Notes under the pieces: generated by a model
The model's database searches: none
The model's input: only the letters and a program-made list of their open reading frames with translations
Told to the model about the DNA's origin: nothing
Origin: Octopus vulgaris
Taxonomy: Eukaryota
Reading direction: 5' to 3'
NCBI GenBank assembly: GCA_951406725.2
Contig: OX597828.1
Coordinates: 72,168,001 to 72,232,000 of the forward strand
DNA: 64,000 nucleotides
Shown: one piece after another, positions 8,548 through 56,501 of the stretch
How the letters are laid out: each line of letters begins with the position of its first letter
Numbering within the stretch: position 1 is the stretch's first letter
Program-made: the position numbers and the translations under genes

Positions 8548-8763
8548 ATGCAGGACGAGAACTTCAGAAAACCTAAACTATTACCTTGTTTTCCTGTAAT
8601 ATCACCAGTATGGTTTGGTCAGGAACCCTCCCTAACAATGAGTGCTAGTTCTCCTTTAATCCCTTCCTTTCCAGCTCTTCGCTGTTGTTCCTCAATGTCC
8701 ATTTCTACCACTTCTGTTCCCGTTATTAGCTTCAGCTTCCCAAACCGGACTGTCACACTATGA
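8548..8763 (+). promoter_or_regulatory. Candidate upstream ORF (71 codons) whose TGA overlaps the DUSP ATG (ATGA)
   Basis: ORF-track ORF 8548-8763. Its stop TGA is 8761-8763 and the main ATG is 8760-8762. A likely acceptor tatttcag at 8351-8358 would place it in the 5' UTR. Confidence 0.45.
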
Positions 8764-8906
8764 GCGTTCTGCCATTGAAAGTTATGGACAGTGAACCTCC
8801 TGTCCAAGTCACTGACACTGACCAAAACTTAGTCACACAAGAGGTTCCATGGAAATTGATGGAACCCCATGGATTAGTAGAAATAATATCGAATCTTTTA
8901 GAGAAG
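8760..8906 (+). CDS. DUSP16: DUSP8/DUSP16-like dual-specificity MAPK phosphatase, coding exon 1 (MSVLPLKV...IISNLLEK)
   Basis: ATG at 8760, 49 codons, then donor AAG|GTAAGT at 8907 (phase 0). Joins in frame to the next exon to give LEK|VLIIDSR, matching the DUSP8/16 N-terminus (TEKVLLIDSR). Probably a single orthologue of both vertebrate paralogues. Confidence 0.85.
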
Positions 8907-10412: not shown

Positions 10413-10523
10413 GTACTTATTATCGACAGCCGCTCATTTCTGGAGTTTAACACCTGCCATATACGTCACTCAGTCAACGTCTGTTGCTCTAAGCTGGTGA
10501 AAAGACGTTTACAGCATGATAAG
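10413..10523 (+). CDS. DUSP16: DUSP8/16-like coding exon 2, rhodanese/CH2 domain with kinase-interaction motif (VLIIDSRSFLEFNTCHIRHSVNVCCSKLVKRRLQHDK)
   Basis: Acceptor tctcttttacag|G and donor AAG|gtgaga; 111 nt, phase 0/0. IDSR..F.E.N..HI..S.N..CSKL.KRRLQ.DK is the DUSP8/16 signature. Confidence 0.95.
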
Positions 10524-20000: not shown

Positions 20001-20175
20001 GTTCACATAAAAGATTTGCTGGCTCAAACATGCCACATTGATGCTGATGAGAATGCCGAAATTATCGTCTATGACCAATGCACTGAGGAACCAGCCTATT
20101 TGACGGGAGACAATTTCTTGGTTGTATTACTGCAAAAACTTTCTTCTGCCTACAAAAGTGTCACACTTCTAAAAG
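20001..20175 (+). CDS. DUSP16: DUSP8/16-like coding exon 3 (VHIKDLLAQTCHIDADENAEIIVYDQCTEEPAYLTGDNFLVVLLQKLSSAYKSVTLLKG)
   Basis: Acceptor aaaattttag|G and donor AAAG|gtaagt (phase 1). VYDQ...D.FL.VLL.KL....SV.LL.G matches the C-terminal half of the DUSP8/16 rhodanese domain. Confidence 0.95.
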
Positions 20176-20587
20176 GTAAGTGCAATCCTGAATTTGCCTC
20201 TCTCCCTCTTTTTTATATTTCCTACTTACAGGATTAATAATAATAATAATAATAATGATAATATTGTAATCCATTTATAAAAATGCTTTAAATAAATCTT
20301 TGATCCTTTAAATGGTATCTTGAAAATGATTTGCCTAATTAGATTACATATTAGCTAATGATTTTTATTATTATTTATGATTAATAATAATAATGATAAT
20401 AATAATAACGAGGATGATGTTAATGATAAAAATAATAATGCTTTCGTTATTAACCACAAGGGTTATTAACGAAAAGATTGGGAACTGTACAGAATGATAC
20501 AGAATGAGGAGATTATGTAAAATGTGAGGGAAAATAAAAGATGACAAAACTAAAACAAAAAGTTTGGAGTAGGAAGACCACCAAGGG

Positions 20588-20624
<37 letters not shown>

Positions 20625-22252
20625 GACTATATAGGACCGAGGTAACTCATCCAGAAGTTATACACAAATACACATGGTATGGCACTCTAATAATAATAAT
20701 AATAATTATAATAATGATAATAATAATAATAATTTTTTCTGCTGGAGCACAAGGTGTGAAATTTTAGGGAAAGGAGCTAATTGATTACATTGGCCCCTAC
20801 TACTCATCTGGTACTTATTCCATTGGCTTCAAAAGGATGAAACATCAGCGGCGTTTCAACTTGGAACGTGAAGGCAAATGAAATGCTGCCTAAGCCACCT
20901 TAATAATAATAATAATAATAGTAATAATAATAATAATAATAATAATGATAATAGAGCTGGCCAAATCATTAGCACACTGGACACAATGCTTGGCAGTGTT
21001 TTGTTTGTCCTTATGTTCTGAGTTCAAATGCTGCCAAAGGTTGATTTTGCCTTTCATCCTTTTGGGGGTTGATAAAATAAATATCAATTGAGCTCTGGGG
21101 TCAATGTAATTGACTCAGCCCTTCCCCCCAAATTTGCTGGCCCTTTGCCTAAATTTGAAGCCATTGGTAATATTGTTATTTAAATATCTTATTTGCTAGG
21201 AATGGCTGTGTGGTAAGTAGCTTGCTTACTAACCACATGGTTTTGGGTTCAGTCCCACTGCGTGACACCTTGGGCAAGTGTCTTCTACTATAGCCTCGGG
21301 TTGACCAAAGCCTTGTGAGTGGATTTGGTTGACAGAAACTGAAAGAAGCCTGTCGTGTATGTGTGTGTGTGTTTGTCCCCCCATTATCACTTGACAATCA
21401 ACGTTGGTGTGTCTACATCCTCGTAGCTTAGCAGTTTGGCAAAAAAGATCGATAGAATAAGTACTAAGCTTACAAAGAATTTTGTTGATTTGTTGATTTG
21501 TTTGACTACAAGGCGGTGCCCCAGCATGGCCCCAATCAAATGACTGAACTGAGTCAAAGAGTAATCATGAATGAGAGAGTAAATAAAGGTTGTTTACGAA
21601 CAGGAACTACAGAAGGTCTTTGTCTCTTGTTATTTTGTTCCTTGTAGTAAATACAGCTCGTCTCTCTCTCCATTGTTCGTTTACATTGAAACTAGTGGGT
21701 CAGTGTTTTGTAGGTGGCAGTAGTGAAGTGCACTTGTGGCATGGGCGAATAGCAGGCATGGTTGTGAGTAATTACTCAGGGTAGGCAGTTGATGACGTTT
21801 ATGTAGTAAAACACACACACAAAAAAAATAATAAGTGAAACACAGGCGTGCGACTGAGTTGAAGGCAGATTTACTTCTGCCTTTATAGTGTGTATAGAAA
21901 ACATTGTTGTAGGAGTGTACGCAGCATGTGTACTACAGTAGTACTATGCGTAGCTTTAATACTGAGATTGAAAAGCAGGGGTGAATTATGCCTACCTAAT
22001 CTACAAAAAAATGAAATATTTTGTATTTTATGCATAATAACCAGAGTAACCTTCATAATTTTATTGAATTCGGTGCATATTTTGTCATACAAGGAAAATG
22101 TTGCTATCGATCTATTTTATTCAAGGTAGGCACTGCCTACCTTGCCTACCCAGGTGGCACGACGTCCCTGGCAGGTAGTTAAGAAATTCACTTGACCACG
22201 ATTGGGGTTCGGTGTGAGTGTGTGCCATCTGAGAACCCAGTGTCTTTTAGCG

Positions 22253-22352
22253 AAGCCATGAGTCAGCCCAAGCCATGAGTCAGCCCAATGAGTCAGCCCA
22301 AGCCATGAGTCAGCCCAAGCCATGAGTCAGCCCAAGCCATGAGTCAGCCCAA
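22253..22352. repeat. 17-bp tandem repeat (GCCATGAGTCAGCCCAA) x6, each unit holding an AP-1/ARE motif
   Basis: TGAGTCA at 22259, 22276, 22289, 22306, 22323 and 22340. One unit is shortened to 13 bp. Confidence 0.95.
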
Positions 22353-22580
22353 GGTTTGGTGGGGGCTGTGTGAGATGGGTTGTACCTGTAATTCAATAGG
22401 TTATTGTCTTGTCACACACCACACTGAGTCAAGGTGAGTCATGCTTATTCTTCCTGAGAACTTCTCAGCCACATTGTTCTGGGTTCACTCTCATTGAATG
22501 GCACCCGAGGCAAGTCTCCTACTATAGCTCCAGGCTGACCAAGCCCTTGGGAGTGGATCTTGTTGACAGAAAGAAGCCTG

Positions 22581-22626
<46 letters not shown>

Positions 22627-24498
22627 ATTGCACACACATACACACAAATCACACACACACACATGTATGTATATATATATCTGTGTGTGTCTTTGTGTTT
22701 GTCCCCACCACTACATGGCAACAAGCGATGGGTTGTGTATGTTCCCTTAACTTAGCTGTTTGGCAAGAAGAGACTGATACAATAAGTACCAGACATATTT
22801 TAACTAACCTGCAATTCATTTATTGTATAGAGTTTTTGTTTAGCCCTGAGTTCGTCCTGATGGTGCAGATTGATGATTAACAGTTTTCCATCCATGGCCA
22901 TCCCGTATTTCATTAAGAAATACTGTCTTTAAGCCTACACTACCTGTTCTGTCCTACCTTCCGTTTTTTTGTTTTTTTTTAATTTCCTAAGGCAATAGGG
23001 TATATGATTTAATAGCTATTTGGCTGTGATTACTAGTAGATCTGGTGACCAGGTGAAGGAGACACTCTGTTTAGCTCTCAGTCAGTTAAAGTGATTAAGA
23101 ACACATCATTTGGAAATGTTAAATCATAATTGCTCGTTTTTCAACATCGAAATGTTTTGTTCTGAACTGCTGGAAAGTTAGTCGCAGAGCTGTCTTTAAA
23201 GGTTAAGAATTCTTACTATTGAGAAATGAGAAAAGAAAAGGAAAAACTCAAGGAAAGAGAAGATATTTCTCAAATGGATTTTGGATTATTTTTTAATTTT
23301 TTTTATTTGTGAAGCATAAGTTAACTAGAAATCTTAATTCCCAATTTTATTTCTCTTTTTATTTTGACATTCTTCCCTAATTTAGCCTGACTGATTTTAA
23401 TTAATTTTCTTAATAATTTTACTTTGAAAATGAAAATTAGTTTCTTTGCATTGTTAACCTCAGTATATAACTGGTAATTTAACAGATTACTGACCTGAGC
23501 ATAAAATAAAGGCTACGATGACTCAGACAGCATATGACCTTGACATTTATTATTGCCGCCATCTTATAGAAATTCTTCTCAAATCCTCATTAAATGGTTC
23601 CTGCCAAAGTAGTTTTTCTCTGTTTTTAGCGGAGAAGGACAAACATTGAGGATTCAATCAACTTTAAATATCGCTCGGAAAGTGATATTGATTTTTTCCT
23701 CCTACTTTGATTTTCTTCCAATCAGTTCACCATTATTTATTGGTTCTTTCATGTATTCCTCGTCTTTTATGCCTTCTCGTGCTACACTTTGTTTCCGATG
23801 CTATTTATTTACATAATTTTTCAAGACTTCTTTTTTCCCTTATTATTTCAAGTAATGCACGTGGAAAAAATAATTTGTCTTCTTTCTTTACTGAGCTGAA
23901 CGAAATCATGTAAATCTTTTAGTTTTTCTTCTTCTTTCCTTCCCAAGGCTACTGTACAGTTACTAACCTCATAGAACAAGTCTTAATTATTCTCATTCTA
24001 ATCACCAACAATTGTTGTGCATCACTTAATAATGGCAGACTTATTCTATTGTCTGGTTTGGCACCATCACCTGCTGCTAAACCAGGTACCTTTAGCATTT
24101 TTGTTGCAAATAGGCCTGAGCAGAGGGCAGTCTGGTTGATTCCGTTCTGACATGGTCATCTGCCCAAGTTAGTGGCACAGGGATGACTCTTTAGTAAAGA
24201 ATTCCCAATTTTATAAACCATTCGTATTCTTATATTCTGTTCCATTACTTACAAAACTTTATATACATTGCATGTGTGCATGCATGCATGAATGCACACC
24301 AGTAACCTGTACACGAATCACGTGTATTTAAATTTAACCCTGATTATTAAAATATAGAATGAATATTTAGAAACGGGGCCTAAATTTCACAGCTAGCCTG
24401 ATCCTGTTATCAGCTTTGAACAGGTTTTGTTGCACATACTGGGGCTAGATCTATCTCTGCAGTTGATTTCTCTCCATATATATGTGTGTATGTATGTA

Positions 24499-24534
<36 letters not shown>

Positions 24535-24539
<5 letters not shown>

Positions 24540-24902
24540 CTATATAAACGGCAGTTTGTCTGTGCGTTTTCTGTGTGTCTGTTTTCTCGTACCCTCACTC
24601 TGACCACGGCTTTCAACCGATTCTGATGAAACTTGACACACACATAGCCCAATGTCATAATTCAAAACTAAAGCAGCGAAAATTTTGAAAAGTTCCCCCA
24701 GTTCTGAAAAAATCGATAAATTCGACATGGGGTCAAGAATCAGAAACCCAAACCACAGACCGTCTAGGGGACGCAACTCCACCTTTTTTAACTCTGAAAA
24801 AAATTTACCATCATTTTTTTCTATTTTTTGGCTATAACTCTCTAAAAATGCTTTATAGTTATTTCCCTTACAAACCTGAGCAACGCCGGGCGATACTGCT
24901 AG
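24535..24902 (+). mobile_element. Non-autonomous Helitron
   Basis: 5' TC terminus (TCTCTCTATATAAACGGC), 3' GC-rich hairpin CCTGAGCAACGCCGGG followed by CTAG; inserted between A and T in a (TA)n tract. Confidence 0.8.
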
Positions 24903-24913
24903 TATATATATAA

Positions 24914-25125
24914 ATATACCAATTAAGGACTGAACACGAAAAGTGGACAGTCAACATGCTAGATATAGACGTCAAATCGTCATTCACCACAAAAGATTAT
25001 GTTCTCAGATCAAACTCAGTTGAGTTTGATCTGAGAACATAATCTTTTGTGGTGAATGACGATTTGACGTCTATATCTAGCATGTTGACTGTCCACTTTT
25101 CGTGTTCAGTCCTTAATTGGTATAT
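24914..25125. repeat. Perfect palindrome, 105-bp arms, 2-nt spacer
   Basis: 24914-25018 is the exact reverse complement of 25021-25125. Confidence 0.95.
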
Positions 25126-25769
25126 ATAAATATTTTAATCTTCGGATTCTTTTTTAATATGCTAGACCACTGGTCTTAATTGATAAATATCAATTTCTAC
25201 CCTTAATTAATTTTATATATATAAATATATAAGAAATCATCTATCTATCTAATTATAATATTATCATATTATAATTTATTATAATTTATACAACTTCTGT
25301 GCCCTGTCCACACCAGCCTGTCATGGCTCCATTCCTGTGGATACTCTTACAAAGATTTGGAGCCAAGTCTAAAATTCTAAACAAAGCATGAAATATATCT
25401 TTTACCTGTTTCACTTATCAGACTGTGCCCATGCTGAGGCAATATATATTTTTATTGCAGAAAATAAGGAAATCTCAAATTCAGGAAAATAAGGTATGAA
25501 AATAGCTTAGAAGATTGGGGGGAAAAATACCCTTATGAGGTGGGTGGTGAGGGGCTGGTTGGCTCAAAGCTGGAATTTGAGGGATAAAATTGAGGGGCTT
25601 ACTGGTCACTTTTTATCCATCTTAGAAGGGTTTTTTTTTACCTGATCTTTTAAGCTGTTTTCACAGCCATTTTCTTGCAATCGAGATTTCTGTAATTTCT
25701 AAATTAAAACTACTAACTTACTTGACACTTTGATGTTGGTTTATAAAACTCTCTCTCTGTGTATGTGTG

Positions 25770-25808
<39 letters not shown>

Positions 25809-25983
25809 CATATTGATAGATGAAGGTGCATGGCCTAGCAGTTAGGGCGTTGAGCTCATGATCATAAAGTCATAGGTTCAATTCCTGTATTGGGCAGTGT
25901 ACTGTATCTTTGGGTGGGGCACATCATTTCACTTTACAACTCAGACTATTCATAGGTCACACATTGATGACTGTTTTTCATGC

Positions 25984-26200
25984 ATTGATTGTATTGGGTA
26001 ATTGAGTAATGACTAAGGATTGATTGTATTGGTGGGTAATTGAGTTATGACTAAGGATTGATCGTATTAGGTAATTGACTAATGACTAATGGTTGTTTGT
26101 ATTGGGTAGTTGAGTAACAACTACTGATTGGTTGTACTTGGTTGTTGAGTAAAGACTAGTAATCATTCATATTTGGTAGTTAGGTAGTGACCAGTAATCA
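25984..26200. repeat. Degenerate ~35-38-bp minisatellite (GATTGATTGTATTGGGTAATTGAGTAATGACTAAG)
   Basis: About 5-6 progressively diverged units read directly. Confidence 0.75.
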
Positions 26201-26324
26201 TTGACCATCTGAAGGCTGACCAGTGGCATTGTGTCCGTGTACTGAGAGGCTGAGTACAATGTACTTTGACTGCACCTTTTCTGCCTATGTGTATCTCGGC
26301 ATATTTACTAGGCTGAAAATGTAT

Positions 26325-26743
26325 ACTCTTTACTCTTTTACTCTTTTACTTGTTTCAGTCATTTGACTGCGGCCATGCTGGAGCACCGCCTTTAGTCGAG
26401 CAAATCGACCCCGGGACCTATTCTTTGTAAGCCCAGTACTTATTCTATCGGTCTCTTTTGCCGAACCGCTAAGTGACGGGGACGTAAACACACCAGCATC
26501 GGTTGTCAAGCAATGCTAGGGGGACAAACACAGACACACAAACATATACACACACACTTATATATATATATATATATACATATATACAACAGGCTTCTTT
26601 CAGTTTCCATCTACCAAATCCACTCACAAAGCATTGGTCAGCCCGGGGCTATAGCAGAAGACACTTGCCCAAGATGCCACGCAGTGGGACTGAACCTGGA
26701 ACCATGTGGTTGGTTAGCAAGCTACTTACCACACAGCCACTCC
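26325..26743 (-). mobile_element. Full-length family A SINE (tRNA head, CORE-like domain, internal TA/TG tract, tail ending AGTAAAAG repeats)
   Basis: Near-identical to 21198-21562(+) and 28128-28550(+). A and B boxes present. Confidence 0.85.
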
Positions 26744-28127
26744 TGTGCCTATGTCTTCAGTTTGTTTTTTGGTTTTTTTTTCATGATGTTGGTCGGCTCA
26801 AAAAGAGCTAATTAGTGCTATTAAACAACATCAATCAACATTAGCAGCAATGGCACCACCACCACCACCACCACCACTTAATCCCGATTCAAGGTCTTTA
26901 TCAATAAAGATTTCGGCAACCATTCCTTTTTATGGGATTATTTCCTTCCAACAGGAAGCAATCGTCTGAAGAAACCAAAGAAAACATGAATCTGTTTTTC
27001 TTTTCATTTTGTGTTTGTTGTTTTGTTAACGATATTTTGTTCTTTTAATTAAAGCTAAATAAATGCTGCTATAAGTTTATAAAATTACTTGAAATAATGA
27101 ATTCTTTGTATGCTAAAAAAAAAAAAAAATGATGCAAAAAAATAGAATAAACTAAAACTGAGCAAGGATTATATCCGTGGATGGCTTTGTTAATCTCTCT
27201 GGATTAGCGAAGTCTTTACGTCAGCAAAACTGATTATTTGCTTGAAAAAACTTGCTTCTGGCATTAAATAGAAATTGAGAAATGTCGGCGCCTTTATTGC
27301 AGTTGAGGAACTGGTTAATCTGAAAAAGGCTAACAGATAGGTGAAGTAAGGGCCAAAAATGGAAGGGCTCTTGATTTTAAGGTCTGCAGCACACTTTAAA
27401 ATCCTTCCTCACCATCATCGTTGTAATGATATATCCTTGGGCTAGGCATTGGTATAGAGAGCTTTTGGTTTGGTTAAGCTGATGTCAAAGGTTCAACTCC
27501 ATGACTCATTCAAGAAAAAGACGATAAAGAAAACAACAAAAAGTGAACAAACAAAACCAAAAAAAATTACTGTTGCTAATTATAACTGGAGACATATTGT
27601 TTGGGGTTTGTATCAGATATTGTCTTCTGTGAGAACATTATGTCTCTTGTTTGTGCCACCACTACCACCACCACCACCATCACCACCAACACCACCATCA
27701 TAATCATCATCATCATAACTATATAGACCACCATTGCCCAGTTTATGAATTATAATTACTTCAATTATCAGGTTCTTAATGAAAACTTATAAATCAATGT
27801 GTTTCTCTGTCTTTCTTTTCTTCCATTCCTCTTGTAATCTTTCCTCCTTTCTTCCTTTTTCTACTTATGGTGACTCAACCACTTTTCCTGATCATTGAAA
27901 GAGATATATCTAACGTTCGCTGTTCAAATGAAATCTTTTATCTGCTCTCTGTATCATATTTACAGTTTTCCTACTTACAACTACCTCGCTTAGTTTCTTA
28001 AACAATTCGCTCTGAATATCTGGTTTCTGGCGGCCTCTTCTGAGTGTCCTAACTCACTGGACATGTATTTTGGACTTCTAATTGCTGGCGTCTTTAAATG
28101 AACGAGCTGACTGGACATCTAGCCACG

Positions 28128-28292
28128 GGCATGGCTGTGTGGTAAAAACTTTGCCTCCCAACCACATGGTTCTTGGTTCAGTCCCACTGCGTGGCGCCTT
28201 GGGCAAGTGTCTTCTACTATAGCTTCGGGCTTACCAAAGCCTTCTGAGTGGATTTGGTAGATGGAAACTGAAAGAAGTCCATCGTATATATG

Positions 28293-28349
<57 letters not shown>

Positions 28350-28541
28350 GTATGTGTCTGTATTTGTCCTCCCAACATCGGTTGACAACTAACGGTGGTG
28401 TGTTTACGTCCCCGTATCTTAGCGGTTCGGCAAAAGAGGCCGATAGAATAAATACTAAGCTTCCAAAGAATAAGTCCTGGGGTTGATTTGCTCGACTAAA
28501 GGTGGTGCTCCAGCATGGCTGCAGTCAAATGACTGAAACAA

Positions 28542-28550
<9 letters not shown>
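28128..28550 (+). mobile_element. Full-length family A SINE
   Basis: GGCATGGCTGTGTGGTAA...GGTTCAGTCCCACTGCGTGGCGCCTTGGGCAAGTGTC...GGCTGCAGTCAAATGACTGAAACAAGTAAAAGAG. Confidence 0.85.
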
Positions 28551-28577
<27 letters not shown>

Positions 28578-30978
28578 ATTAGCCAGAAAAATCTGCAGTG
28601 TACTGTGAGTGCACAATAGGTGAACCGCGACATGGCGAGGAATTACTGTATGGTTATGTTTTCTTTTTGAACAATTTGTAAATTTATAAACATTTATCAT
28701 TAGTTGTTTCTAAATAAAATGATTTGTCCTATATTTGACCTTATCTAACAGGTACTGACAAATCTAGCCACACTCACACACTCCCTCTCTCTCTCTCTCT
28801 CACTCAAAATTACAATATTTTCCTTTCTATACAAAATGGTTTGCTGTCCTGTGTCAATGTTCTAAATTTTGTCCAAAATATTTCCTACCTGCTGGACAAT
28901 ACACCAGCTACCTGTACATTACAACCTTTGTTATTTTTGCTTTGTATAGATTTTTATAATCTTAGTTTATATCTGAACTCTGTGTACACAGCCTAATTGT
29001 ATCGGTTAAACCACTTCTTCTAATGCTTGCCCCTTAATCTTTAGCATTGCCTGGATACAGTTTCTCAGAATTATATCAACAAAGTCGTTAACAGTGTTAA
29101 TTGCTACAAACCTATCAGCTTTGATGTATATCTCCATACCATCAAAGTGACTTCTGATAGCAGTGATTGTCATCCTCACTTCTTCGATGTGTTTCTAAAG
29201 GCAAGTGTTACCTGTGTATAGGCAGGTGTTGCCTATATATATATATATATATATATACATACATATATATACAGGTGTTATCTCTGTATAGGCAGGTATT
29301 ACCCATGTATAGGCAGGTATTGCCCTAGTACTCAAGCTTGATTTAATCAGGAGTGGTTAGAGTAATGATCTGCAAATTTCCGTACTGAACCCTGAATGAA
29401 AGCCCCCAACTCTCATATTGTGATAAGATTTTCCATTCATTAAAACCTTTCGACTAGTATGGATCATCATTTCTAAGAAATCTAATAAACCTTTTTTGCA
29501 TTTTACCGTCAGGTACTTAACATTCCTCTGTTTTATTATCGTTATAAAACTTTGTGATATTTGATATCATTTGTTTTGTTTTATTTTATGATTAAAAGTC
29601 TCCTGGGTCGGTGGCAGTTGGTGGTGGCTGTGGCGGCAGTGGTGGGGGTTTCTAATGCAGGTTAAAGTCAATAACTAGTTTAAGTTATTAAACTTTCCTT
29701 TAATTTCTCACTCTTTCCCATCCTGGTGTTGTAAAATATTCCCCCCAACAAACTGGCTTTTGTATTCCTTTCAATGTCTGTGACCCATCTTTGTATTTAG
29801 GTTCCGAATGCCTTTAAAATGGATGTTTGAAATTCCTGTTTTCCAAATTGTCAAAATGAACAGAACTATTAAATGTAATTTTCATGCCATTCTCTGATTG
29901 GTTAATTCTCAAATTGTCTTTGAATGATTATGATATTCTACACCTGACTGCTGTTGAGATTGAACTGATGAAATACGGTTGCATGCAGGCATTCATCTCT
30001 CATCTTTAGTTGTAATATACAAGGGTTCATGTGGACAATTGTATAACTGGGTCATTCTTAGGAAAATAAAACCAAAATAGATTTTCATATAATTTTTAGA
30101 ATGCTCAGAAAAGTGACTATATACTTGTAAAGGTATGTCAAAATGGTTCACTTCTTGACCTAGCATTGATATTAGGGAAGTTTCTTGGAAATCTACACTC
30201 TTTGGAAGATAGAGAAAACATTTGTCTTGAACGTGTATCTATCTTTGTTGCACACATCACACCAGGTGAATGAGAATTGTGACCACAGACTTTGATGTCC
30301 AGGAAATTCTTTAGCATATTTTTTGAGGTTCAAGGTCAATGTAAATAAACATCGTGGGACTTTTTATGCTGCTCTGAAGAAATTCAGAGAAGTTAGTGGA
30401 TATTTTCAGGTGAAAAATGTTATTTTGTGCAATGTCATGTATGCTACACTTTTTAGATGCTTTGTATATGAATCCATTATGTTTACATTGATGTATTCGT
30501 ATAGGAAATGTTGTAACTTTCAGGGCTGGCTCTAAATTTGGAAAATCTGTGGAGATATACTTATGGCTTAGATATTTCGTAATTTGTGGTTGACTGTCAC
30601 GTACGTCACGCAAGAATGATCCAAGTGTAATCTTGTTTGTGTGTGCGTGTGTGTGTGATAGACGATGTGGTTGATGTTGTTGTTTACCTGTGTCACCTTC
30701 GTTGGAGTACACCTGTGATCAAAGGCTTCCATCTATGACCATCCTAGCTTTCTTTCTCTCTCTCTCTTTTTTGCTTCGTTTTGTTGTGGGACTACATTAC
30801 GTATTGTGTGAGTCGTTCCCATTTTTAAGACAGTGGAGCCAGTTTGAGGGAGATTTGGCTGGTGTTTCTTGCAGGTCCTGTAGAGGCCTCGTAGCAGTTT
30901 CCTTTGGTTGACTCATGTGAAATGATAATTAGAGGAGAGTGTCATATAAGAAACAAATAGCAATTAATATTTAATTAT

Positions 30979-31013
<35 letters not shown>

Positions 31014-31019
31014 GATTGG

Positions 31020-31803
31020 TGTAGGTGGTAAATTGGAAGATCCAAAATGCTTAGTGGCATTTCTTCTGCTTTACGTTCTGGGTTCAAATTCTGCTGGGGT
31101 CCAGTTTTCCTTTCATCCTTTCAGGAGTCGTTACTATAAATACCTGTTGAATACTGGGGGGGGGGGTCGATATAATCAACTCATCTCCTTATTCTGAGAT
31201 TACTGGCCTTGTGCCAAAATGTGAAACCGATATTTCTTCCAGCTTTCTATGTTCTGATTTCAAACACTGCTGAGGTCAACAAAGTACTAGTTAAGTACTG
31301 GGGTCGACATTACGGAGTCACCCCTTTCCCTGAAAACTGCTCACCCTCTGCTTAAAAGTGAGACCCTTAATGGGTGAGACCCTTAATGGAATTTCATCTA
31401 TCTTTTTGTGCTGGGTTCAAATTCTACCAAGGTTGACATTGCCTTTCATCCTTTCAGGGTCAATAAAATAAGTACCAGTTAAACACTGGGGTTGATGTAC
31501 TCGACTTATCCCCTCCCCCAGAATTGCTGGCTTTGTGTCATAATTTGAAACCATTATTATTATTATTAATACTAATATTATTATTATCAAGGCAGCAAAC
31601 TGGCAGAATCGTTAGCACGCTGGATGAAATGCTTAGTGGTATTTCACCTGCTGCTACGTTCTGAGTTCAAATTCCACCGAGGTCAACTTTGCTTTTCATC
31701 CTTTTGGGGTCAATAAATTGAGTACGAGTGAAACACCGGGGTCAATGTAATCAACTAGTCCTCTCCTCCCAAATTTCAAGGCCTTGTGCCTATGATAGAA
31801 ATG

Positions 31804-31844
<41 letters not shown>

Positions 31845-32960
31845 GGTGGTGAGCTGGCAGAACTGTTAGCATGCCAGCTGAAATGCTTTGCGGTATTTCG
31901 TCTGTCTTTACATTCTGAGTTCAAATTCTGCCGGGGTCAACTTTGCCTTTCATCCTTTCGGGGTTGATAAATTAAGTATCAGTGAAACACTGGGGTCGAT
32001 GAAATTGACTTGTCCGCTCCCTCAAATTTTCAGGCCTTGTGCCTTTAGTAGAAAGGATTATTATTATTATTATTATTGAAAGCTCATGGCCTTAGTGATT
32101 AAGGTGTTGCACTCACGATCGCAATATCATGGTTTCATTTCCTGGACTGGGTGGTGCATTGTGCTCTTGAGCAAAACACTTCATTTCACGTCCCTCTGCA
32201 ATCACTTTGACACCTGACGACGCATGGCACACTGTGCATGTGTTCAGGTAATGTCGATTTGATGAAGCAAGTAAAAGCTGTTGTGCAACTCATAAGCAAA
32301 TTATTTGTGCAGATTGTTTGGCAAAAGAAGTTGAACACTCGTTATGTTGTCTTCAACAGGAGAGTCCATCGTTATTATTATTATTATTTTACTTGGCGAG
32401 CTGGCAGAGTTGTTAGTGTGCCAGGCAAAAAGCTTAGTGGCATGTTGTCCACCTTTACGTTCTGAGTTCAAATTCCACTGAGGTCCACTTTGCCTTTCAT
32501 CCTTTCAGGGTTGATAAAATAAGTACCAGTTACGCACTGGGGTCAATGTAATTGACTAGTCCCCCCACTTGAATTTCAGGCCTTGTCTACAGTAGAAAGG
32601 ATTATTATTATTATTACCTCTGCTTTAGTGAAGGTAAAGGTATTGTTTTCAGTTGTGTTTGTTTGTTTGTTTGTGGACAAGATATCCCAAGAACTGCTGG
32701 AGGGATTCTGATGAAACTTTCGGGGATGTTTGGCCTTGTGACTGGCACAAACTGATTAGATTTGGGGATTGATCTGGTACCAGGCAAGGGTTCTGGATTA
32801 TTTTTCTTGTTTTTTTTTTTTACTTAATTCTTGAGATTGGTCTGGTTCAATTTTAGTATTCTTGTTTGTGAGAGCAGATTTCAGATATTCTCATTTTAAA
32901 AATCCTCTCTGGCTAATCGTTGCTGTTGCTTTGCTGGAGATTTGTGCACTCTGAATGCTC

Positions 32961-32998
<38 letters not shown>

Positions 32999-33230
32999 GT
33001 AGGCTGCAAGCTGGCAGAATCGTTAGCACTCTTGCCAAAATGCTTAGCGGCATTTCATCCATCTTTACGTTCTGAGTTCAAATTCTATCTGAGGTTGACT
33101 TTGCCTTTTATCCTTTCAGGGTCAATAAATTAAGTACCAGTGAAACACTGGGGTCGATGTAATCAACCAGTCCCCCTCCCCACAAATTCCAAGCCTTGTG
33201 CTTCCAGTAGAAAGGATTATTATTATTATT
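31020..33230 (+). mobile_element. Head-to-tail cluster of about 7 family B SINEs (Meta-domain-like) separated by (ATT)n
   Basis: Repeated GGCGAGCTGGCAGAATCGTTAGCA...GAGTTCAAATTC...GCCTTTCATCCTTTCGGGGTCGATAAATTAAGTACCAG. The central segment resembles the MetaSINE domain. Confidence 0.8.
32614..32965 (+). mobile_element. Helentron-associated non-autonomous element (HINE/DINE-like)
   Basis: Starts TTACCTCTGC, has an internal (GTTT)n tract and ATTCTGATGAAACTT, and ends GCTGGAGATTTGTGCACTCTGAATGC (sub-TIR plus 3' hairpin) in a T-rich site. Confidence 0.6.
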
Positions 33231-34718
33231 ATTATTACAACGACCACTGTTGCTATAACCTATTGTTGAAAAGCTATGTTGGACTGGGGTTGATGCTAGA
33301 AGATCAATATGTATCAATAATATAATTCAGTGATCAGTAAAGGTAGGGAGTGGTCCAGTTATTGTTGAATTTATTGATTTTAACAATTTTAGATTTTCAG
33401 TTTAGAGAGAAAAATTTATAAGAAAATTATGTAAAATTTAAATATTTTTTCAGTTAAAAAATGTATATTAATCAGAAATTAAAAATGTATGTGGAGAGTA
33501 ATTTTTCTTAATTAATCAACAGGATGATTAATTAATTAATCCACAAATATTTATTATATTTTATAAAAAGTGGACTCCAAAATCAAATGCTGGCTCTCTC
33601 TCTCTCTCTCTCTCTCTACTTTGAAAGAAGCTTGTCACCTTAGTGTGTGCGTGTGTGTGTGTGTGTTTGTGTGTGTGTAAATGTGTCTGTTTGTGTGTTG
33701 GCTTGTAAGTATAAATGTGTCTTTGCATGAGTGTGTATGTGTTGGCGTGTGTGTGTGTGTGTGTGTGTAAATGTGTCTTTGAGTGTGTGTGTGTGTGTGT
33801 GTGCTGTGTGTTGAGATGAGTCATCCTCTGTTAACTGCTACTGTTCATTTTATAGTGCTGCTGCTGCTGCTGCTGGTGGTGGTGGTGGTATTGGTGGTGG
33901 TGGTGGCGGCATCAGCAGCAGCCAACTTGGGGTACCAGCTGTTTTGTTGTTAGTTGCTACTGAAAGCTTTTCAATCCATGTACATAGTCTTAATCATTTC
34001 CTTTTCCTCACCTTTCTCTCTACACCTCCCACCTCACCCCACCACTCTCTCTCTCTCTCTCTCTACTGCCTGCTCTCTTTCTCTGCACTCCCCCCCTCTC
34101 TTTCTACCATTTGCTTCTCTCACTCTTTCTACCTTTCGCCACCTCTTACCCTCCCTCCCTCCCTTTGTCAGCCTATAATCTCACATTTCTCTCCGCCTCA
34201 CTTCCTCTCTCTCTCCCTCTCCCCTTCTTCCCCTTCCTCTCCTCAATTCAGTCATTTTTCAAAAACTCTGATCAATGACATTTCAAAACTTCCAGTTCCA
34301 AGTGTTTTGTCATTTTTCTTTCTCCCCCTTTTCATTATTCCATCGAAATCTATAGAATGTTACCAAGTCTCTCCTGCCAAATACCTACCTCTGTGTACCT
34401 CAGAGATGCTGGCAAGAAGTGTATAGGCATCCGTCTGCCTCACATGCATCCAGACACCATCTACACTCTTTGTGTATACATCCATGTCTAAGCCTGTCAC
34501 ATACGCACATTTACAAATGATGTCCTGTATTTGTAAATTTGGAATTTTATTTTCTTACCAAACCGAGCAGATTCATAAGAAAATTTTAACGGATATTTTT
34601 AATGATTACATTTCGTTACACTAATTAGCAATAATAAATAGCCAGGTAAGTGTAATTAAAGCCCCCCAACTTTTTCTTTTTTTTTTTTTTGGAGGGGGAG
34701 TTATTATCATCATCATCA

Positions 34719-34762
<44 letters not shown>

Positions 34763-34927
34763 GTTGTTCTTATGTTGCGTACCGATTGCGTCTCCTTAGG
34801 TGTGAAATAGAAACTCTTTTTAAAAAGTCGATCACTTTGTTATTAGCGGTAATATTGCAATAAGGAATAGTTGGACACACAAGACTGTGCGTGTGTCTGT
34901 CTGTGTGCACACACACACACACAACTC

Positions 34928-34996
<69 letters not shown>

Positions 34997-35061
34997 GAAC
35001 CGATATATCAATTGATATATATATATTTATTTATATAACACAGATTTATCTCTATCTCTGT

Positions 35062-35101
<40 letters not shown>

Positions 35102-35145
35102 CAGATCTATCTATTTATTTGTGTTTGTGTGAGTATGTATATATG

Positions 35146-35187
<42 letters not shown>

Positions 35188-35465
35188 CATATATGTATAC
35201 ACACACACACACATGCACCCATACGTATGGCTGTTGTTATTTCTTGTCCTTTTCTCATCTCGCATTTGTCTCGTCCAGGTGTCTGCTGCTTCTTCTTCAC
35301 ATGCATGTGTATGCACATGCATGCATGCACACCTGCGTGCATTCTTACATACCTGCACGTCTGCATGTACACGTACTGGCACCTGAAACTTTTAATGCTG
35401 TCATGCGTTCGGTTTCACAAATACGTTTACATTACGTAAAGATTGATTTGTTGTGGTGGCATCTC

Positions 35466-35496
<31 letters not shown>

Positions 35497-35594
35497 CACA
35501 TGCTCTCCTGTATGTGTATGTATGTACATATGCACACACACACACGTATTTGTATATATGTATTTATGTATATTTATATATATATATATATATG

Positions 35595-35730
35595 TTATTC
35601 TTAAACAAGACCAGTGTGAACAGTGGCTTTGAAGTTTTGGCCAGTTAAGCCATCATCAAGCAGTCCGACAGTGGCTTACCTGGCCAAGACTTCAAAGTCA
35701 CTGTCAAAAATAGTCTTGTTTAAAGAATAA
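35595..35730. repeat. Imperfect inverted repeat (~60-bp arms) in (TA)n, with degenerate hammerhead-like cores
   Basis: TTATTCTTAAACAAGAC...GGCCAGTTAAGCCA pairs with TGGCTTACCTGGCC...GTCTTGTTTAAAGAATAA. Confidence 0.8.
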
Positions 35731-36016
35731 TGAATTATTATTCCATTCCAATTGTTTTTATTATGAATGAACATACAAACAACCATTAACATAATATATA
35801 TATATATATATATATATTTCTTTATTACCCACAGGGGGCTAAACACAGAGGGGACAAACGAAGGGATTAAGTCGATTACATCGACCCCTGGTACTTATTT
35901 AATCGACCCTGAAAGGATGGAAGGCAAAGCGGAATTTGAACTCAGAATGTAACGGCAGACAAAATACCGCTGAGTATTTTGCCTGGCGTGCTAACGATTC
36001 TGCCAGCTCACCACCT

Positions 36017-36066
<50 letters not shown>

Positions 36067-36307
36067 GTATGTATGTATGTATGTATGTATACACACACAC
36101 ACACATGCTGGCATCTCAAAAGTAGTTAGACCCTATTCATTATACGGGTTTATTTGTGTTAGAATCACTCCTTGATACAATGCCTAAACACGTTAAATGA
36201 TTAACAACAACACAAGGCTTCTCTACTAAATCCTAGATTAAGTATTTAAATACACCAAACAACATTATTTTGGTTCTAGAAATAAACCTTTCAAATATAT
36301 ACAAACA

Positions 36308-36339
<32 letters not shown>

Positions 36340-36340
<1 letters not shown>

Positions 36341-36554
36341 GAGAGGCTGCTGAAAAGTTCCTGGCTTTGGGTAAAAGAAAATACAGGAGGATCAGTTAGT
36401 TATGATTTTATTTAAAATATTCCCCTCTCACATTCACACACCTATTCAGTTTTTTTCTAAGCCCCCTAAAAAAAAAAAAGAAAACTTGGAAGGTTGGGTT
36501 TCCAACAAGGCCTTTCATGAAACCCTTAAAGCCGGGAACTTTGCAACATGCCCT

Positions 36555-36557
<3 letters not shown>
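36340..36557 (-). mobile_element. Non-autonomous mariner-like element
   Basis: TIRs TGAGAGGCTGCTGAAAAGTTCCTGGCTTT and AAAGCCGGGAACTTTGCAACATGCCCTTG, flanked by TA. Homologous to 6735-6882. Confidence 0.7.
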
Positions 36558-36625
<68 letters not shown>

Positions 36626-36630
36626 GTGTG

Positions 36631-36704
<74 letters not shown>

Positions 36705-36794
36705 CGGAGAAAACAATTGCAGCGTGGAAGGTGTTTGTAAGCCATTTAAGAAACAAACAAAACCGTTCGATTCACTTCAACATTTAAGTTTAAT

Positions 36795-36843
36795 TTGTCA
36801 AAATATTTTCGTCGCTTTGAAACCGCGACCTGTTCACTGACAA
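36795..36843 (-). ncRNA. Hammerhead ribozyme-like motif, G3-C8 core variant (left arm)
   Basis: UUGUCA-GUGAACA-G-GUCGC(GGUUUCAAA)GCGAC-GAA-AAUAUU-U/UGACAA. Confidence 0.7.
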
Positions 36844-36862
36844 AAATATGCAGCACGGATTA

Positions 36863-36910
36863 TTGTCAGTGAACAGGTCGCGGATTTTAGCGACGAAAAT
36901 ATTTTGACAA
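36863..36910 (+). ncRNA. Hammerhead ribozyme-like motif, G3-C8 core variant (right arm)
   Basis: UUGUCA-GUGAACA-G-GUCGC(GGAUUUUA)GCGAC-GAA-AAUAUU-U/UGACAA: stem I 6 bp, stem II 5 bp, palindromic stem III. Confidence 0.7.
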
Positions 36911-36990
36911 ATTAAACTTAAATGTTGAAGTGAATCGAACGGCTTTTGTGTGTTTCTTAAATGGCTTACAAACACCTTCCACGCTGCAAT

Positions 36991-37040
<50 letters not shown>

Positions 37041-37978
37041 GACTGACCCCAGGAGAGTCTCCAGTAGGGGCTTTGAAACTTGAACTAGCATGGAATCTAA
37101 ATCAAACTATTTTGAACAATATATGTGTGTGTGTGTATTTACACACACATGAATTGTTGATGCTATGAGAACTTAGAAACTTTGAGAGAAGATAAAATAA
37201 TTTTTTTGAGGAAAATGGTGTGTTGTATCTTGAAGCAGATAGAGCTATAAATAATAGCAATGTAGATGTTAGATTAAAAAAAACTGTTTGGATAGAAAAA
37301 GTTGAATGCTGGCTTTGGGACTTGAACCTACATCTCTTAGATGTGTGTACGTATGTATTTACTGCATGTAGATGCGTCTGTCTTGTGTAGATTAATTAGT
37401 TGGCAGACAAAGTTTTTAGAAAGTTATTTTCATCTAGTTTCAAATTCGTTAAAACTTCGTTTATTACAAAATATGTACAACAAATGTTTGCAAATAATTT
37501 TGGAGTGTTTAAATATTCTAAAGATGTGTAACTAATTCTACAAGGGATAAGATGCTACTCCCTTTTGGGTAACTTCCCTGGAAATATTTGAAATCTACTG
37601 AGTGAAAGAAAACATTTTAGAAAAATTCCTTATTTTATTAAATTTATTTTAAAATTATTAGAATCGTTGAAATATTTTGAAGTCAAAATATTTAATATTG
37701 ATCTTTCGTATTTTCTAGAAATCAAGACGAAATTATTATTGATAGAAATTTGTAATTAGGATTTAGGGTAGGGTGGGGTGGATTTGATAAGCTGTTACTT
37801 TTAATTGACATAATTTATAATTGTTAATGAGGCTTTCATTAGCCTAAATTTTGGGATTAGTCTCTCTCCTGTCTATAAACTATATTTTAATTTTGCTGCC
37901 AAACACACACACATACACCTGCACACACACACACACACATGCATACCCACATAAACATCTCTCTCTATCTCTCCCTCC

Positions 37979-38014
<36 letters not shown>

Positions 38015-38068
38015 ATGTATGTATATAGATATATATATATATATATGTATGTATATGTATGTATATAG

Positions 38069-38104
<36 letters not shown>

Positions 38105-38236
38105 ATGTATGTATATAGATATATATGTATGTATATGTATGTATATAGATATATATGTATGTATATGTATGTATATAGATATCTATATATGTATATATAT
38201 ATAGATATCTATGTATGGACAAGCACTTATATATAT

Positions 38237-38271
<35 letters not shown>

Positions 38272-39178
38272 TTCACCTAAACATACCCCGCATAGTGTAC
38301 AGAGAAGAAAAAATGTTTCAATTGAAACCAAGCCCCACCATATTGGTGACTGAGAGAGTATAAAACATTTCAAAGGTGTACCCCTATTTTAATTCAGTGC
38401 TGTTGTAATGACCCAGACCCTTACCAACCTGCTGACAATTAATGAGATCATCTGTCAGATACTAGATAATGTATATCTGTGTGTGTGTGTGTGTGCAGAG
38501 GGAGAGAGTGGACTGGCTTGAATTGTTGACTAGTCTTGCCTTTACACTGTGTTTCATGGGTTTTTCTTCTCTGTAAACAGATAGATGACAAGTTTCTTTT
38601 GGTACTAAAATACAGGCTTCTTTCACAACTAGAATGGGTAGAGATTCAGTTTTTATAATACTTATTTCTTTACTACCCACAAGGGGCTAAACATAGAGGG
38701 GACAAACAAGGACAGACAAAGGGATTAAGTCGATTACATCGATCCCGGTGTGTAACTGGTACTTACTTAATCGACCCCCCGAAAGGATGAAAGGTAGTCA
38801 ACCTTGGCGGAATTTGAACTCAGAACCTAACGGCAGACGAAATACCACTAAGCATTTTGCCCAGCATACTAATGATTCTGCCAGGTCACCGCCCAGTTTT
38901 TATAATACAATGTTAACTGTAGTTTGTTGTTATGTACTGTATAATGAGTTGTGGTACTGACTGTGTTTAGCTTGTGACACTGACTGTATAGTACACCAGT
39001 TTTCAAGAAGCATTGCCTGATACACACACACACGTATATATGGTTGAGCGGACAAATGAAATAAAAAAGCACTCAACACATTTATTTGGAGTTGCATATT
39101 TTATTATTTAAAGCAGTTTTGAAGTTTTAAGCCAGATGGAACTGGATCAAACTGCTTTAAAAGGTAATATTGATAAGA

Positions 39179-39209
<31 letters not shown>

Positions 39210-39229
39210 TATACATAAGCATAAGTTAA

Positions 39230-39304
39230 TAATACAGGTACAAACCATCAGTCTATGTTATTAATTTTTATAACTGGCAGTGTTTTGGTTTTAATTTTAT
39301 ATAT

Positions 39305-39350
<46 letters not shown>

Positions 39351-39936
39351 TCATCATCATCATCATCGTTTAGCGTCCGTTTTCCATACTAGCATGGGTT
39401 GGACGGTTCAACTGGGGGTCTGTGAAGCCGGAAGGCTTCATCAGGCCTAGTCAGATCTGGCAGTGTTTCTATGGCTGGATGCCCTTCCTAACGCCAACCA
39501 CTCCGTGAGTGTAGTGGGTGCTTTTTACGTGCCACCCGCACAGATGCCAGACAGAGCTGGCAAACGGCCACGAACGGATGGTGCTTTTTATGTGCCACCG
39601 GCATATATATTAATAAAAGGAATTCCAACCTTGTCTGATTTTGACGTTTTATTTACAATCTTATAATGATATATTATAAGATAATATATTATAATTGGAT
39701 AAAATGAAATGAAATAGTAGAATGTTAAATGTTCATTCTGATTGAACTAGTACTTTCATGCATTAAATTCTGCAATCTTCAAGTTCATGTAGTAGTGGTG
39801 ACAGTCATGCTTCACAATTTTTGACTGTGATATATATATATATATATATCATCATATATATATATATAAAATTAAAACCAAAACATTGTCAGTTATAAAA
39901 ATTAATAAAACAGACTGATGGTTTGTACTTGTATTA
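39230..39936. repeat. ~70-bp inverted arms (39230-39300 and 39867-39936) enclosing (TA)n tracts and a family C element
   Basis: TAATACAGGTACAAACCATCAGTCT...TTTTGGTTTTAATTTTA versus TAAAATTAAAACCAAAAC...AGACTGATGGTTTGTACTTGTATTA. Confidence 0.85.
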
Positions 39937-40499
39937 TATATATATATGTCGTATATATGTATATATATATATGTGTGTGTGTGTGTTTGTGTGTCTGTGT
40001 TTGTCCCCCTAGCATTGCTTGACAACCGATGCTGGTGTGTTTACGTCCCCATCACTTAGCGATTCTGCAAAAGAGACTGATAGAATAAGTCCCGGGGTTG
40101 ATTTGCTCGACTAAAGGCAGTGCTCCAGCATGGCCGCAGTCAAATGACTGAAACAAGTAAAAGAGAGCAAAGAGTATATATATATATTGTTGCCATAATG
40201 CTAAAGTGTCGAAAGTCGAAAATGTTGCTTTTTCAGAAAATGAAAAAAAATCATTTCACCATTCCATAGTACTACATTTTGTAGTACTACATTTTGACAA
40301 TTTTTGATATCTTGGCATTTGAAGCAGCTGGAGATACGATAGTTTGACTAAAAGAACTGGCTATTGCAAACAAAAATAAATATTGAAAATAACACATTTG
40401 CCCAAATTTGGATATACGACAGTTTAACATAATACCAATAATATATGTATATCTATATCTATCTATATATATATATAAAATATATATATCACACACATC

Positions 40500-40815
40500 A
40501 CTGCCATTCCCTAAGTTGCAACGACAAGGGTACCAGTTGACCCGATCAGTAGAGCAGTCTGCTCATGAATTTAATGTCAAGTGGCTGAGTCTCCACAGAC
40601 ATGCTCACCCTTAACATAGTTCTCGGGAAGATTCAGCATGACAGATCAAATATGGCAGAGCTGATCCTTTGAAACGCACCTCATTTTCGTCAGCTGATTG
40701 GACTGGAGCACCGTGAAATAAAGTGTCCAGCTCTAGGATGCAGTGTGGTGCCAGGAATCAAACTCGTGATCCTACAATTGTGAACTGAACACCCTAACCA
40801 TTAAACCATGTGCCT
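40500..40815 (-). mobile_element. tRNA-derived SINE (family D), uninterrupted copy
   Basis: Minus strand GGCACATGGTTTAATGGTTAGGGTG...GAGTTTGATTCC...GCTCCAGTCCAATCAGCTG. Homologous to 50068-50610. Confidence 0.7.
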
Positions 40816-41298
40816 TGGCTTTTGGTTTTGAAAGAAATTATCAAAGGCCCTGCTTGTAACACTGACTCTATATCAATAGTACAGATAAGGAATTACTGTG
40901 ATATTCACTTTTATGTAACTGTTGAGGTGGCAGTAAATTTATATAGTTAGTTGTGAGACTAACTGTATTTAGGACACTAAATATATATAGAACTGTAGTT
41001 GTAACACTAATTTTATAGAACTAGTTGTGACTCTATAACTGGAGTTGTGGCACAAACATATAATATATATATATAATATATTTATACAAATTGAGATAGG
41101 GGTTGTAAATGCAACCCTCCATGGGATAACATATATCCAATATACTGCTAGTGAAGTACCCAACAAAGTTAATACATAAATGTTAAGAACTGCGATGCAA
41201 TTAATTCATTTACTGTATTATAATGGGCAAAAGTAAAATGATTTACCACAAATTACTAATACAGGGGAGAGTCATTTTTTTTTGTGCCTTATAAAATG

Positions 41299-41329
<31 letters not shown>

Positions 41330-41579
41330 TTATAATAATAATAATATTAGGGAATAAATCCAAACTTACAGGGAAAAATTAGATTTAGGATTAAATCCAA
41401 TTTTATAGTATAAATATGTTATATTATATTATATTAAATTAGAGATAAAACCACTATTAGGCAAATCAAACAGTGAAAAACATAAGCCAATACATAAAAT
41501 TAATTTAAAAATATAAAAGTTAAAAGTAAAAAATTATTTAAATAATTTAAACTTATAAATTTTATATATATATACAAAT

Positions 41580-41830
41580 ATATATATATATATGTATGTA
41601 TGTATATTTTAATATTTATATATTATTTTATTAATTAATTAATTAATTTATTTATTTTTTAAATTTAAAAATTTTTTATTTATTTATTTTTTATATATCA
41701 AAAGTATTAAAAGTTTAAACTTTAAATACTTTTGATATATAAAAAAATAAATAAATAAATAAATAAATTAATTAATAAATGAAATATTATATAAATATAA
41801 AAATATACATACATACATATATATATATAT
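41580..41830. repeat. AT-rich imperfect palindrome centred on GTTTAAAC (41713-41720)
   Basis: Core TATATATCAAAAGTATTAAAAGTTTAAACTTTAAATACTTTTGATATATA, with mirrored (TTTA)n/(TAAA)n and (TATG)n/(CATA)n flanks. Confidence 0.8.
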
Positions 41831-42093
41831 GAATAAGCAAAAATTGTTTGAGCAGACAGCCATGTGGAAGTGGCTTTGAATATTGCTTATATACATAACC
41901 GTTATTATACACAGCAGTTTTTGCCACAACTACAACTTTACAAGTGACACATCCTGTGGACATTTGAAAGGTGAGGTTTTGTATCATGGAACTGGGATGG
42001 TCTCGGGTTAGTAGTGGAAGGGTTAATACAACAATCATCATCCTCATTATTATTATTATTACTATTATTATTATTATTAATATTATTATTTAC

Positions 42094-42130
<37 letters not shown>

Positions 42131-46149: not shown

Positions 46150-46227
46150 TTGGGGAAATTTCAAACCTGGGTTCTCATTCCTAAGGTATTTTTTGATGTT
46201 ATTATTATTATTATTATTATTGTTCAG

Positions 46228-48572: not shown

Positions 48573-48609
<37 letters not shown>

Positions 48610-56425: not shown

Positions 56426-56501
<76 letters not shown>

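Follow-up and report, generated by a model that had tools for sequence, protein, structure and literature searches.

Several described systems resemble the locus reported here. The human IFNB1 MRE VNTR and other MORC3-restricted repeats (PMC13373173) are minisatellites that multiply a single motif, AP-1-like clusters included, and this class was described with evidence from chromatin, reporters and populations (7-13 repeats) and with mammal-wide conservation of motif density. In Alu SINEs, CpG deamination creates binding sites (PMC3228489; PMC6060477), among them sites for p53, PAX6 and Myc in the first of these studies, which does not mention AP-1 (0 occurrences). In C. elegans, the induction of vhp-1 upon injury requires KGB-1 and JUN-1 (PMC7935884), and the Drosophila JNK target puckered encodes a phosphatase that acts in feedback (PMC5344978); the passages on feedback in these two papers name no cis-element or repeat. 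An internal tandem motif of ~20 bases, family-wide and degenerate, was reported for the CHRS SINE (PMC3531059).

The window analysed is a stretch of 64,000 nucleotides from Octopus vulgaris, and the locus within it is a real feature: a young AP-1 minisatellite in an old SINE-like remnant, in a gene where AP-1 control would make sense. As in the human repeats, a minisatellite multiplies one motif, but here it consists of six short units known from sequence alone. As in Alu, both ends of the motif, TG and CA, lie on CpG-decay positions of a SINE-like repeat; unlike the Alu sites, the octopus site needs at least one further transition, from an uncertain consensus, and then amplification by slippage. 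The host gene falls in the DUSP8/16/vhp-1 group. In contrast to the CHRS motif, the array is perfect and was seen in one copy only. Octopus tRNA-derived SINEs, OK among them, were reportedly described by Ohshima and Okada in 1994. The repeats of the window are likewise short, dispersed and high in copy number, with box-like heads and simple-repeat tracts, and are likened by description only to OK, OR1 and OR2 (as cited in PMC4824008 and PMC4758252). Titles and opening lines of abstracts on octopus repeats and chromatin, on DUSP genes with AP-1 and on AP-1 minisatellites contained nothing on this locus.

The array and its host gene

Eight perfect TGAGTCA heptamers start at positions 22259, 22276, 22289, 22306, 22323, 22340, 22425 and 22435 (motif scan of the window), with spacings of 17, 13, 17, 17, 17, 85 and 10 bases in that order. 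They span 183 bases without overlap, in agreement with the eight AP-1 sites in ~190 bp that a first-pass annotation had listed. The six tandem units of that annotation are five identical 17-mers and, in third place, one 13-mer, with TGAGTCA in each and no substitution in 98 bases; the reading common to all six is ATGAGTCAGC. Tandem Repeats Finder reports 22253-22353 with a period of 17 and 6.2 copies, and a 3-base microhomology, AAG, lies just 3' of the array at 22351-22353. The units run head to tail and are longer than those of a microsatellite, as is usual for minisatellites. The features are:

22253..22350, plus strand: minisatellite with units of 17, 17, 13, 17, 17 and 17 bases, one TGAGTCA each
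22425-22431, plus strand: AP-1 site 7, inside a 13-base insertion (22422..22434) absent from both family-B tails (see below)
22435..22441, plus strand: AP-1 site 8; the same position in either family-B tail is not an AP-1 site

Because six of the eight sites are duplicates of a single one, a count of eight overstates the independent events, of which there are two or three. In the 64-kb window 22 TGASTCA motifs were observed versus 10.7 ± 3.4 expected (100 shuffles, of which one reached 22). This excess is due to the array, since the remaining 14 motifs outside the locus fall within expectation.

The array begins 2,077 bases after the third coding exon of its host gene, close to the ~2 kb noted before. 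The exons were placed as follows:

8760..8906, plus strand: coding exon 1 of DUSP8/16 (vhp-1-like), by tblastn with the Octopus sinensis vhp-1-like protein
10413..10523, plus strand: coding exon 2, rhodanese-like MAPK-binding domain, by tblastn, PDB and Pfam Rhodanese
20001..20176, plus strand: coding exon 3, by tblastn, PDB and protein search
20177..64000, plus strand: intron after coding exon 3, which holds the array and runs off the window, by tblastn

The three coding exons are 98-100% identical to the O. sinensis vhp-1-like protein (1 of 145 residues differs). A protein search with exon 3 gave eight proteins from 20 candidates, the best being the same O. sinensis protein at 100%. The top PDB match for exons 2 and 3 is DUSP16 (E 5e-12 and 5e-6), exon 2 passes the Pfam Rhodanese cut-off, and the N-terminal rhodanese-like MAPK-binding domain is nearest to that of DUSP16/8. 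The dual-specificity catalytic domain is not encoded within the window (tblastn) and is present in the near-identical O. sinensis protein, where it matches DUSP16 at E 2e-60 and DUSP8 at E 2e-53, versus E 5e-36 for DUSP10. By domain and homologue matches the host, annotated earlier as a JNK phosphatase gene, is a DUSP8/16-type JNK/p38 phosphatase. AP-1-driven feedback in such phosphatases, for which puckered had been cited, is reported for nematode vhp-1 (PMC7935884), a nearer precedent, and by analogy the premise of AP-1 feedback on the host gene would be sound for the octopus. Exon 4 was not found in the window by tblastn with three cephalopod homologues, and the intron is longer than 43.8 kb, since no further exon lies in the window.

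A likely splice acceptor ~30 bases upstream of coding exon 1 suggests an earlier untranslated exon. An assembly gap of 100 N is present at 5603-5702, ~3 kb upstream of the first coding exon, and the promoter and any untranslated exon were not located. The only perfect CRE in the window (TGACGTCA) is at 7295-7302, ~1.5 kb upstream of the same exon. Positions 1-12420 are free of any perfect TGASTCA (motif scan), and the sampled 5' region thus has no competing TRE.

Several other readings of the array were rejected. Hairpin-driven expansion was discarded: although dinucleotide shuffles of the array fold less well than the array itself (z -4.0), equally good folding was obtained for 51% of 1000 shuffled units when each was repeated six times. 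Only chance reading frames overlap the array, which speaks against a protein-coding role, and no homologue was found for the 68-codon minus-strand frame over it. A structured RNA or tRNA gene at the array was dismissed after searches of the window with ARAGORN and Rfam, and bacterial or archaeal origin or contamination after no exact two-unit match was found in bacterial and archaeal genome contigs.

Repeat families and the origin of the array

Dispersed repeats make up ~30% of the window (self-BLAST). The commonest family, here called A, was represented by a profile of 17 copies (E <1e-3, at least 60 bases; 22100-22480 left out); it has 18 matches at E <1e-20 among the 25 matches listed for the 64 kb, and a density of 0.28 copies per kb. 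Family B is present as six heads and two tails. Both families are short, interspersed and multi-copy within 64 kb, as SINEBase describes for SINEs. SINEBase further places a SINE head by at least 60% identity to tRNA, 5S or 7SL RNA over at least 60 bases; no tRNA or structured RNA was detected in the window by ARAGORN or by Rfam at the gathering threshold. A-box and B-box patterns are found with one mismatch each in two family-A heads and with three mismatches in the head at the locus, and SINEBase counts such boxes as an indication only. Family-A copies lead into (TG)n/(TA)n tracts. The locus element is interrupted at both ends, and it showed no target-site duplication. Families A and B are called SINE-like for their shortness, their dispersal, their box-like heads and their tracts of simple repeats. 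A motif look-up in the part of the published supplements consulted for a named octopus SINE or CORE-SINE consensus gave no match. The repeat features around the array are:

22167..22378, plus strand: decayed SINE-like head and core related to family A, the array being an expansion within the core (profile, shuffles, register)
22373..22463, plus strand: family-B tail fragment (E 6e-4, two-copy profile)
22461..22790, plus strand: a further, distinct family-A copy, truncated at its 5' end and containing a (TA)n/(CA)n tract (E 2.3e-25)
50177-50605 and 40512-40705 (minus strand): family-B copies used for the tail comparison (profile)

A search of the whole window with the family-A profile matched 22174-22278 at E 1.6e-4. 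With the array collapsed to one unit, the locus is 62% identical to the family-A consensus, a score reached by 0 of 1000 shuffles; that of the left flank alone was reached by 1 of 1000, and the 35 bases right of the array, taken alone, are not significant (176 of 1000). An ungapped stretch of 59 bases across the unit matches family A at 36 positions (background 14.9 ± 3.4). Ungapped scores of at least 30 occur at 19 window positions, of which 16 are family copies, the best of the others being 31. Of the 17 positions of a single array unit, only 8 agree with the consensus. The segment 22373-22463 is identical to the family-B copy at 50 kb at 59 of 74 aligned bases (80%). All eight AP-1 sites lie in repeat-derived DNA, since the head and core match family A and the tail matches family B, and the repeat origin of 22167-22463 is well supported and very probably correct. 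Slippage within a repeat remnant, as proposed in the first-pass annotation, is upheld by the profile match, the shuffles and the in-register unit. That annotation had also held that the same array at many loci within a TE would count against its enhancer; the sequence is indeed TE-derived, but the array, or a perfect site at the corresponding position, is found in 0 of the 17 other copies in the window.

The course of events would have started from a region, 22167-22463, that is very probably repeat-derived throughout, with the 17-base unit in register within the element core. One AP-1 heptamer may then have arisen in that core. CpG deamination is the probable route, because the TG and CA ends of TGAGTCA coincide with the two CpG-decay positions of the family; among the 17 family-A copies the first of these columns reads CG in 4, TG in 7 and CA in 3, and the second reads TG in 7 and CA in 6. 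At the unit position 1 of the 17 copies is one mismatch, and 3 are two mismatches, away from TGAGTCA. The column frequencies give a chance of 0.35% per family-A copy, which at 0.28 copies per kb amounts by hand arithmetic to about one such site per megabase. Alternatively, the heptamer may have been inherited from an unsampled parent family. An A-type head with an excess of transversions (27 versus 22 transitions relative to the family-A consensus) joined to an 80% B-type tail indicates that the parent family is probably unsampled and leaves the CpG route uncertain. The head of the locus is the most divergent of its kind, at 62% versus 70-93% in other family-A copies. In a tree built from the collapsed locus, the adjacent copy and those family-A copies that exceed 125 bases, the longest branch was that of the locus, but its support was weak and the tree uninformative.

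The six copies would then stem from replication slippage, long after insertion of the element, between short direct repeats spaced by 17 bases. The motif AGCCT is present twice in the family-A consensus at a distance of 17 bases, equal to the array period; exact microhomology of at least 4 bases at that spacing is kept in only 2 of the 17 copies, and the locus keeps the 3-base AAG. Sites 7 and 8 may derive from a substitution and the 13-base insertion in the adjoining tail fragment. The divergence of the array has a 95% bound of ~3% versus 20-38% for the host pieces, and perfect units within older pieces imply that the array is recent or still being homogenised. Being far younger than its host element, it is not an ancestral JNK-feedback element; the cluster would be a recent passenger, and JNK feedback on the host gene, if present in the octopus, would be older than the array. 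Octopus CpG methylation is described as enriched in introns and exons and low on TEs overall (PMC9476566). The ratio of observed to expected CpG is 0.41 in the sampled gene body and 0.48 upstream, and 0.17, with 3 CpG, at the locus; gene body and upstream hardly differ, and thus give no independent sign of methylation. A second array on the minus strand at 1711-1817, used as a control, has a near-perfect 20-base unit in 5.3 copies within another SINE-like head and no AP-1 site; it is CpG-rich and lies between A-box-like and B-box-like motifs. The expansion of this AP-1-less array in a SINE-like head shows that the process is general in the window.

Clustering, binding potential and possible function

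The clustering of AP-1 sites was assessed by a multi-scale scan against a uniform null and by rank among comparable 7-mer classes. Two single neighbours of the array entered the scan:

21111..21117, no strand given: TGACTCA within a copy of another repeat family, absent from all 10 other aligned copies
21550..21556, no strand given: TGAGTCA within the tail of a family-A copy, absent from all 8 other aligned copies

Both are private changes in their own repeat copies. A further TGACTCA, outside the detected repeats, is found at 23519-23525, 1.08 kb downstream of the cluster. With the array counted once (16 events), the densest stretch, 21111-23519, holds five events versus 0.6 expected, an excess that is lost on correction for the scan (P 0.11; rank 170 among 777 7-mer classes). 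If array and doublet are merged (15 events), P is 0.56 and the rank 574 of 893; if the doublet is split (17 events), P is 0.023 and the rank 62 of 660. The excess of independent sites thus ranges from P 0.023 to 0.56 with the event count, the empirical rank from the top 9% to the top 64%, and clustering after collapse of the array is weak and unremarkable.

All eight sites have the canonical TRE core, TGA(C/G)TCA. A purine is reported to be preferred 5' of the AP-1 core (PMC9756947); it is present on one strand at the six array sites, on both at site 8 and on neither at site 7. The eight sites do not overlap, and several dimers could therefore bind together; the chances that Jun/Fos dimers would bind the cluster upon induction, as judged from sequence features, appear evenly balanced. 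Enhancer capacity is plausible and its class known, since human AP-1 tandem repeats and a repeat enhancer dependent on copy number have been described (PMC13373173). The original ARE consensus (RTGASnnnGC) is matched by 6 of the 8 sites. The high-information 11-base NRF2 motif has no full match among the eight; 6 sites fit 10 of its 11 positions, the array carrying C at the last one. Binding and output are reported to correlate with this longer motif (PMC5305174). The ARE reading of the first-pass annotation stands for the minimal consensus but not for the full NRF2 motif. The sole full high-information NRF2/Maf match in the window is at 57182-57192, within the intron that holds the array.

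The locus is probably, on its sequence features, a young unselected slippage minisatellite in an old SINE-like retroposon remnant and a neutral passenger of the gene, and any effect of the array on expression would be small or nil. The pairing of an AP-1 motif with this particular gene is apt and counts against neutrality. A random 17-base unit contains the heptamer with a chance of 0.37%; by hand arithmetic at window rates, and assuming one other such array per 64 kb, a given 55-kb gene would hold an AP-1 array ~0.3% of the time, and roughly 150 AP-1 arrays would be expected in a 2.7-Gb genome. The ~0.3% figure is the best argument for function, but carries less weight in that any fitting combination of motif and gene would be flagged by a scan of a genome. 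A recently exapted AP-1 enhancer, which would share the TE and slippage origin, be bound by Jun/Fos after JNK activation and modulate feedback by its copy number, is rather unlikely, as is its further element, a loop from the cluster to the DUSP8/16 promoter over a distance of more than 13 kb that would measurably strengthen negative feedback. It would account for eight perfect non-overlapping heptamers in so short a span and accords with the AP-1-dependent induction of vhp-1 (PMC7935884), the feedback by puckered (PMC5344978) and the lack of a competing TRE in the sampled 5' region, 1-12420. Human clusters of AP-1, ETS or SP/KLF repeats are predicted to drive accessibility, and the reporter activity of one human repeat grew with copy number, but the effect was modelled for large (35x) and not for small (5x) clusters (PMC13373173). 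Counting the doublet as two events gives P 0.023 under the uniform null, but this count ranks just 62nd of 660 among 7-mers. The youth of the array also argues against exaptation, as does octopus intronic methylation (PMC9476566); such methylation is atypical of open enhancers. The working enhancer with copy-number-tuned feedback of the first-pass annotation is not borne out: the clustering is weak, a parallel minisatellite has no AP-1 site and the array is recent. That such an enhancer is possible at all, if quite unlikely, follows from the AP-1 induction of the nematode homologue vhp-1. In the same quite unlikely range is a wider proposal in which the SINE-like core is a pre-enhancer, CpG decay supplying the AP-1 site and the built-in 17-base microhomology amplifying it, so that variable enhancers would be seeded genome-wide; the copy in the DUSP8/16 intron, with its added sites, would have been retained as a heritable dial of JNK feedback, for instance in arm injury or regeneration.

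An unsampled SINE family with an A-like head, a B-like tail and the AP-1 site in its consensus, possibly with a family-wide expansion of the 17-mer, would explain a head at 62% to family A, a tail at 80% to family B and the transversion excess, and SINEs with an internal tandem motif of ~20 bases are known (CHRS; PMC3531059). Similar arrays would then be expected at many unrelated loci, but in 64 kb there is no second array and no same-strand unit within 3 mismatches, the single extra match being on the minus strand with 3 mismatches at 44490; the B-type tail continuation is found in 0 of the 6 diverged family-A copies inspected, and the perfect units point to a local, recent expansion. This explanation, including its many arrays, is improbable. 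An antioxidant response array for CNC/small-Maf (Nrf2-type) factors in place of an AP-1 array is very improbable: 6 of the 8 sites conform to the ARE consensus as first defined and agree with the full motif at 10 of 11 positions, but none is a high-information match, the only one in the window being that at 57182, and the window has 20 further occurrences of the minimal pattern. Perfect repeats, and an assembly with at least one gap (the 100 N at 5603-5702), could mean that the number of units, or even the presence of the array, is an assembly error; with an array of only ~100 bases, flanks that are single-copy at high identity and an internal 13-base variant, such an artefact is extremely improbable.

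If the array is a neutral passenger, it offers a clean case of a designed-looking motif cluster produced by repeat decay and slippage, and a warning not to count tandem copies as independent sites. If it is functional, the JNK feedback loop of a regenerating mollusc would have a simple regulatory variant that can be genotyped, and the array would suggest a two-step route, CpG decay and then slippage, from a very abundant cephalopod repeat to stress-response enhancers.

Other features of the window

A 152-codon stop-free stretch on the minus strand at 57699-58154 has no Pfam hit and has eukaryotic look-alikes at 0.95-0.96 in Atlas; it resembles what we take to be the endonuclease end of a non-LTR retrotransposon. 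A 25-base likeness of sites 7-8 to 58206-58228 (E 0.05), beside a probable retrotransposon remnant, was taken as chance. The segment 21740-22170 is single-copy in the window, contains inverted GGTAGGCA motifs and a 23-base palindrome at 22122-22144, and is possibly a small DNA-transposon remnant abutting the SINE head. At 50284-50504 a member of a third abundant family, whose repeats are ~230 bases long with several copies at close to 90% identity, is inserted in the family-B copy. Longer tandem repeats lie amid dispersed repeats at 14086-14367 and 2042-2231 (98 bases x 2.9 at 95%, and 62 bases x 3).
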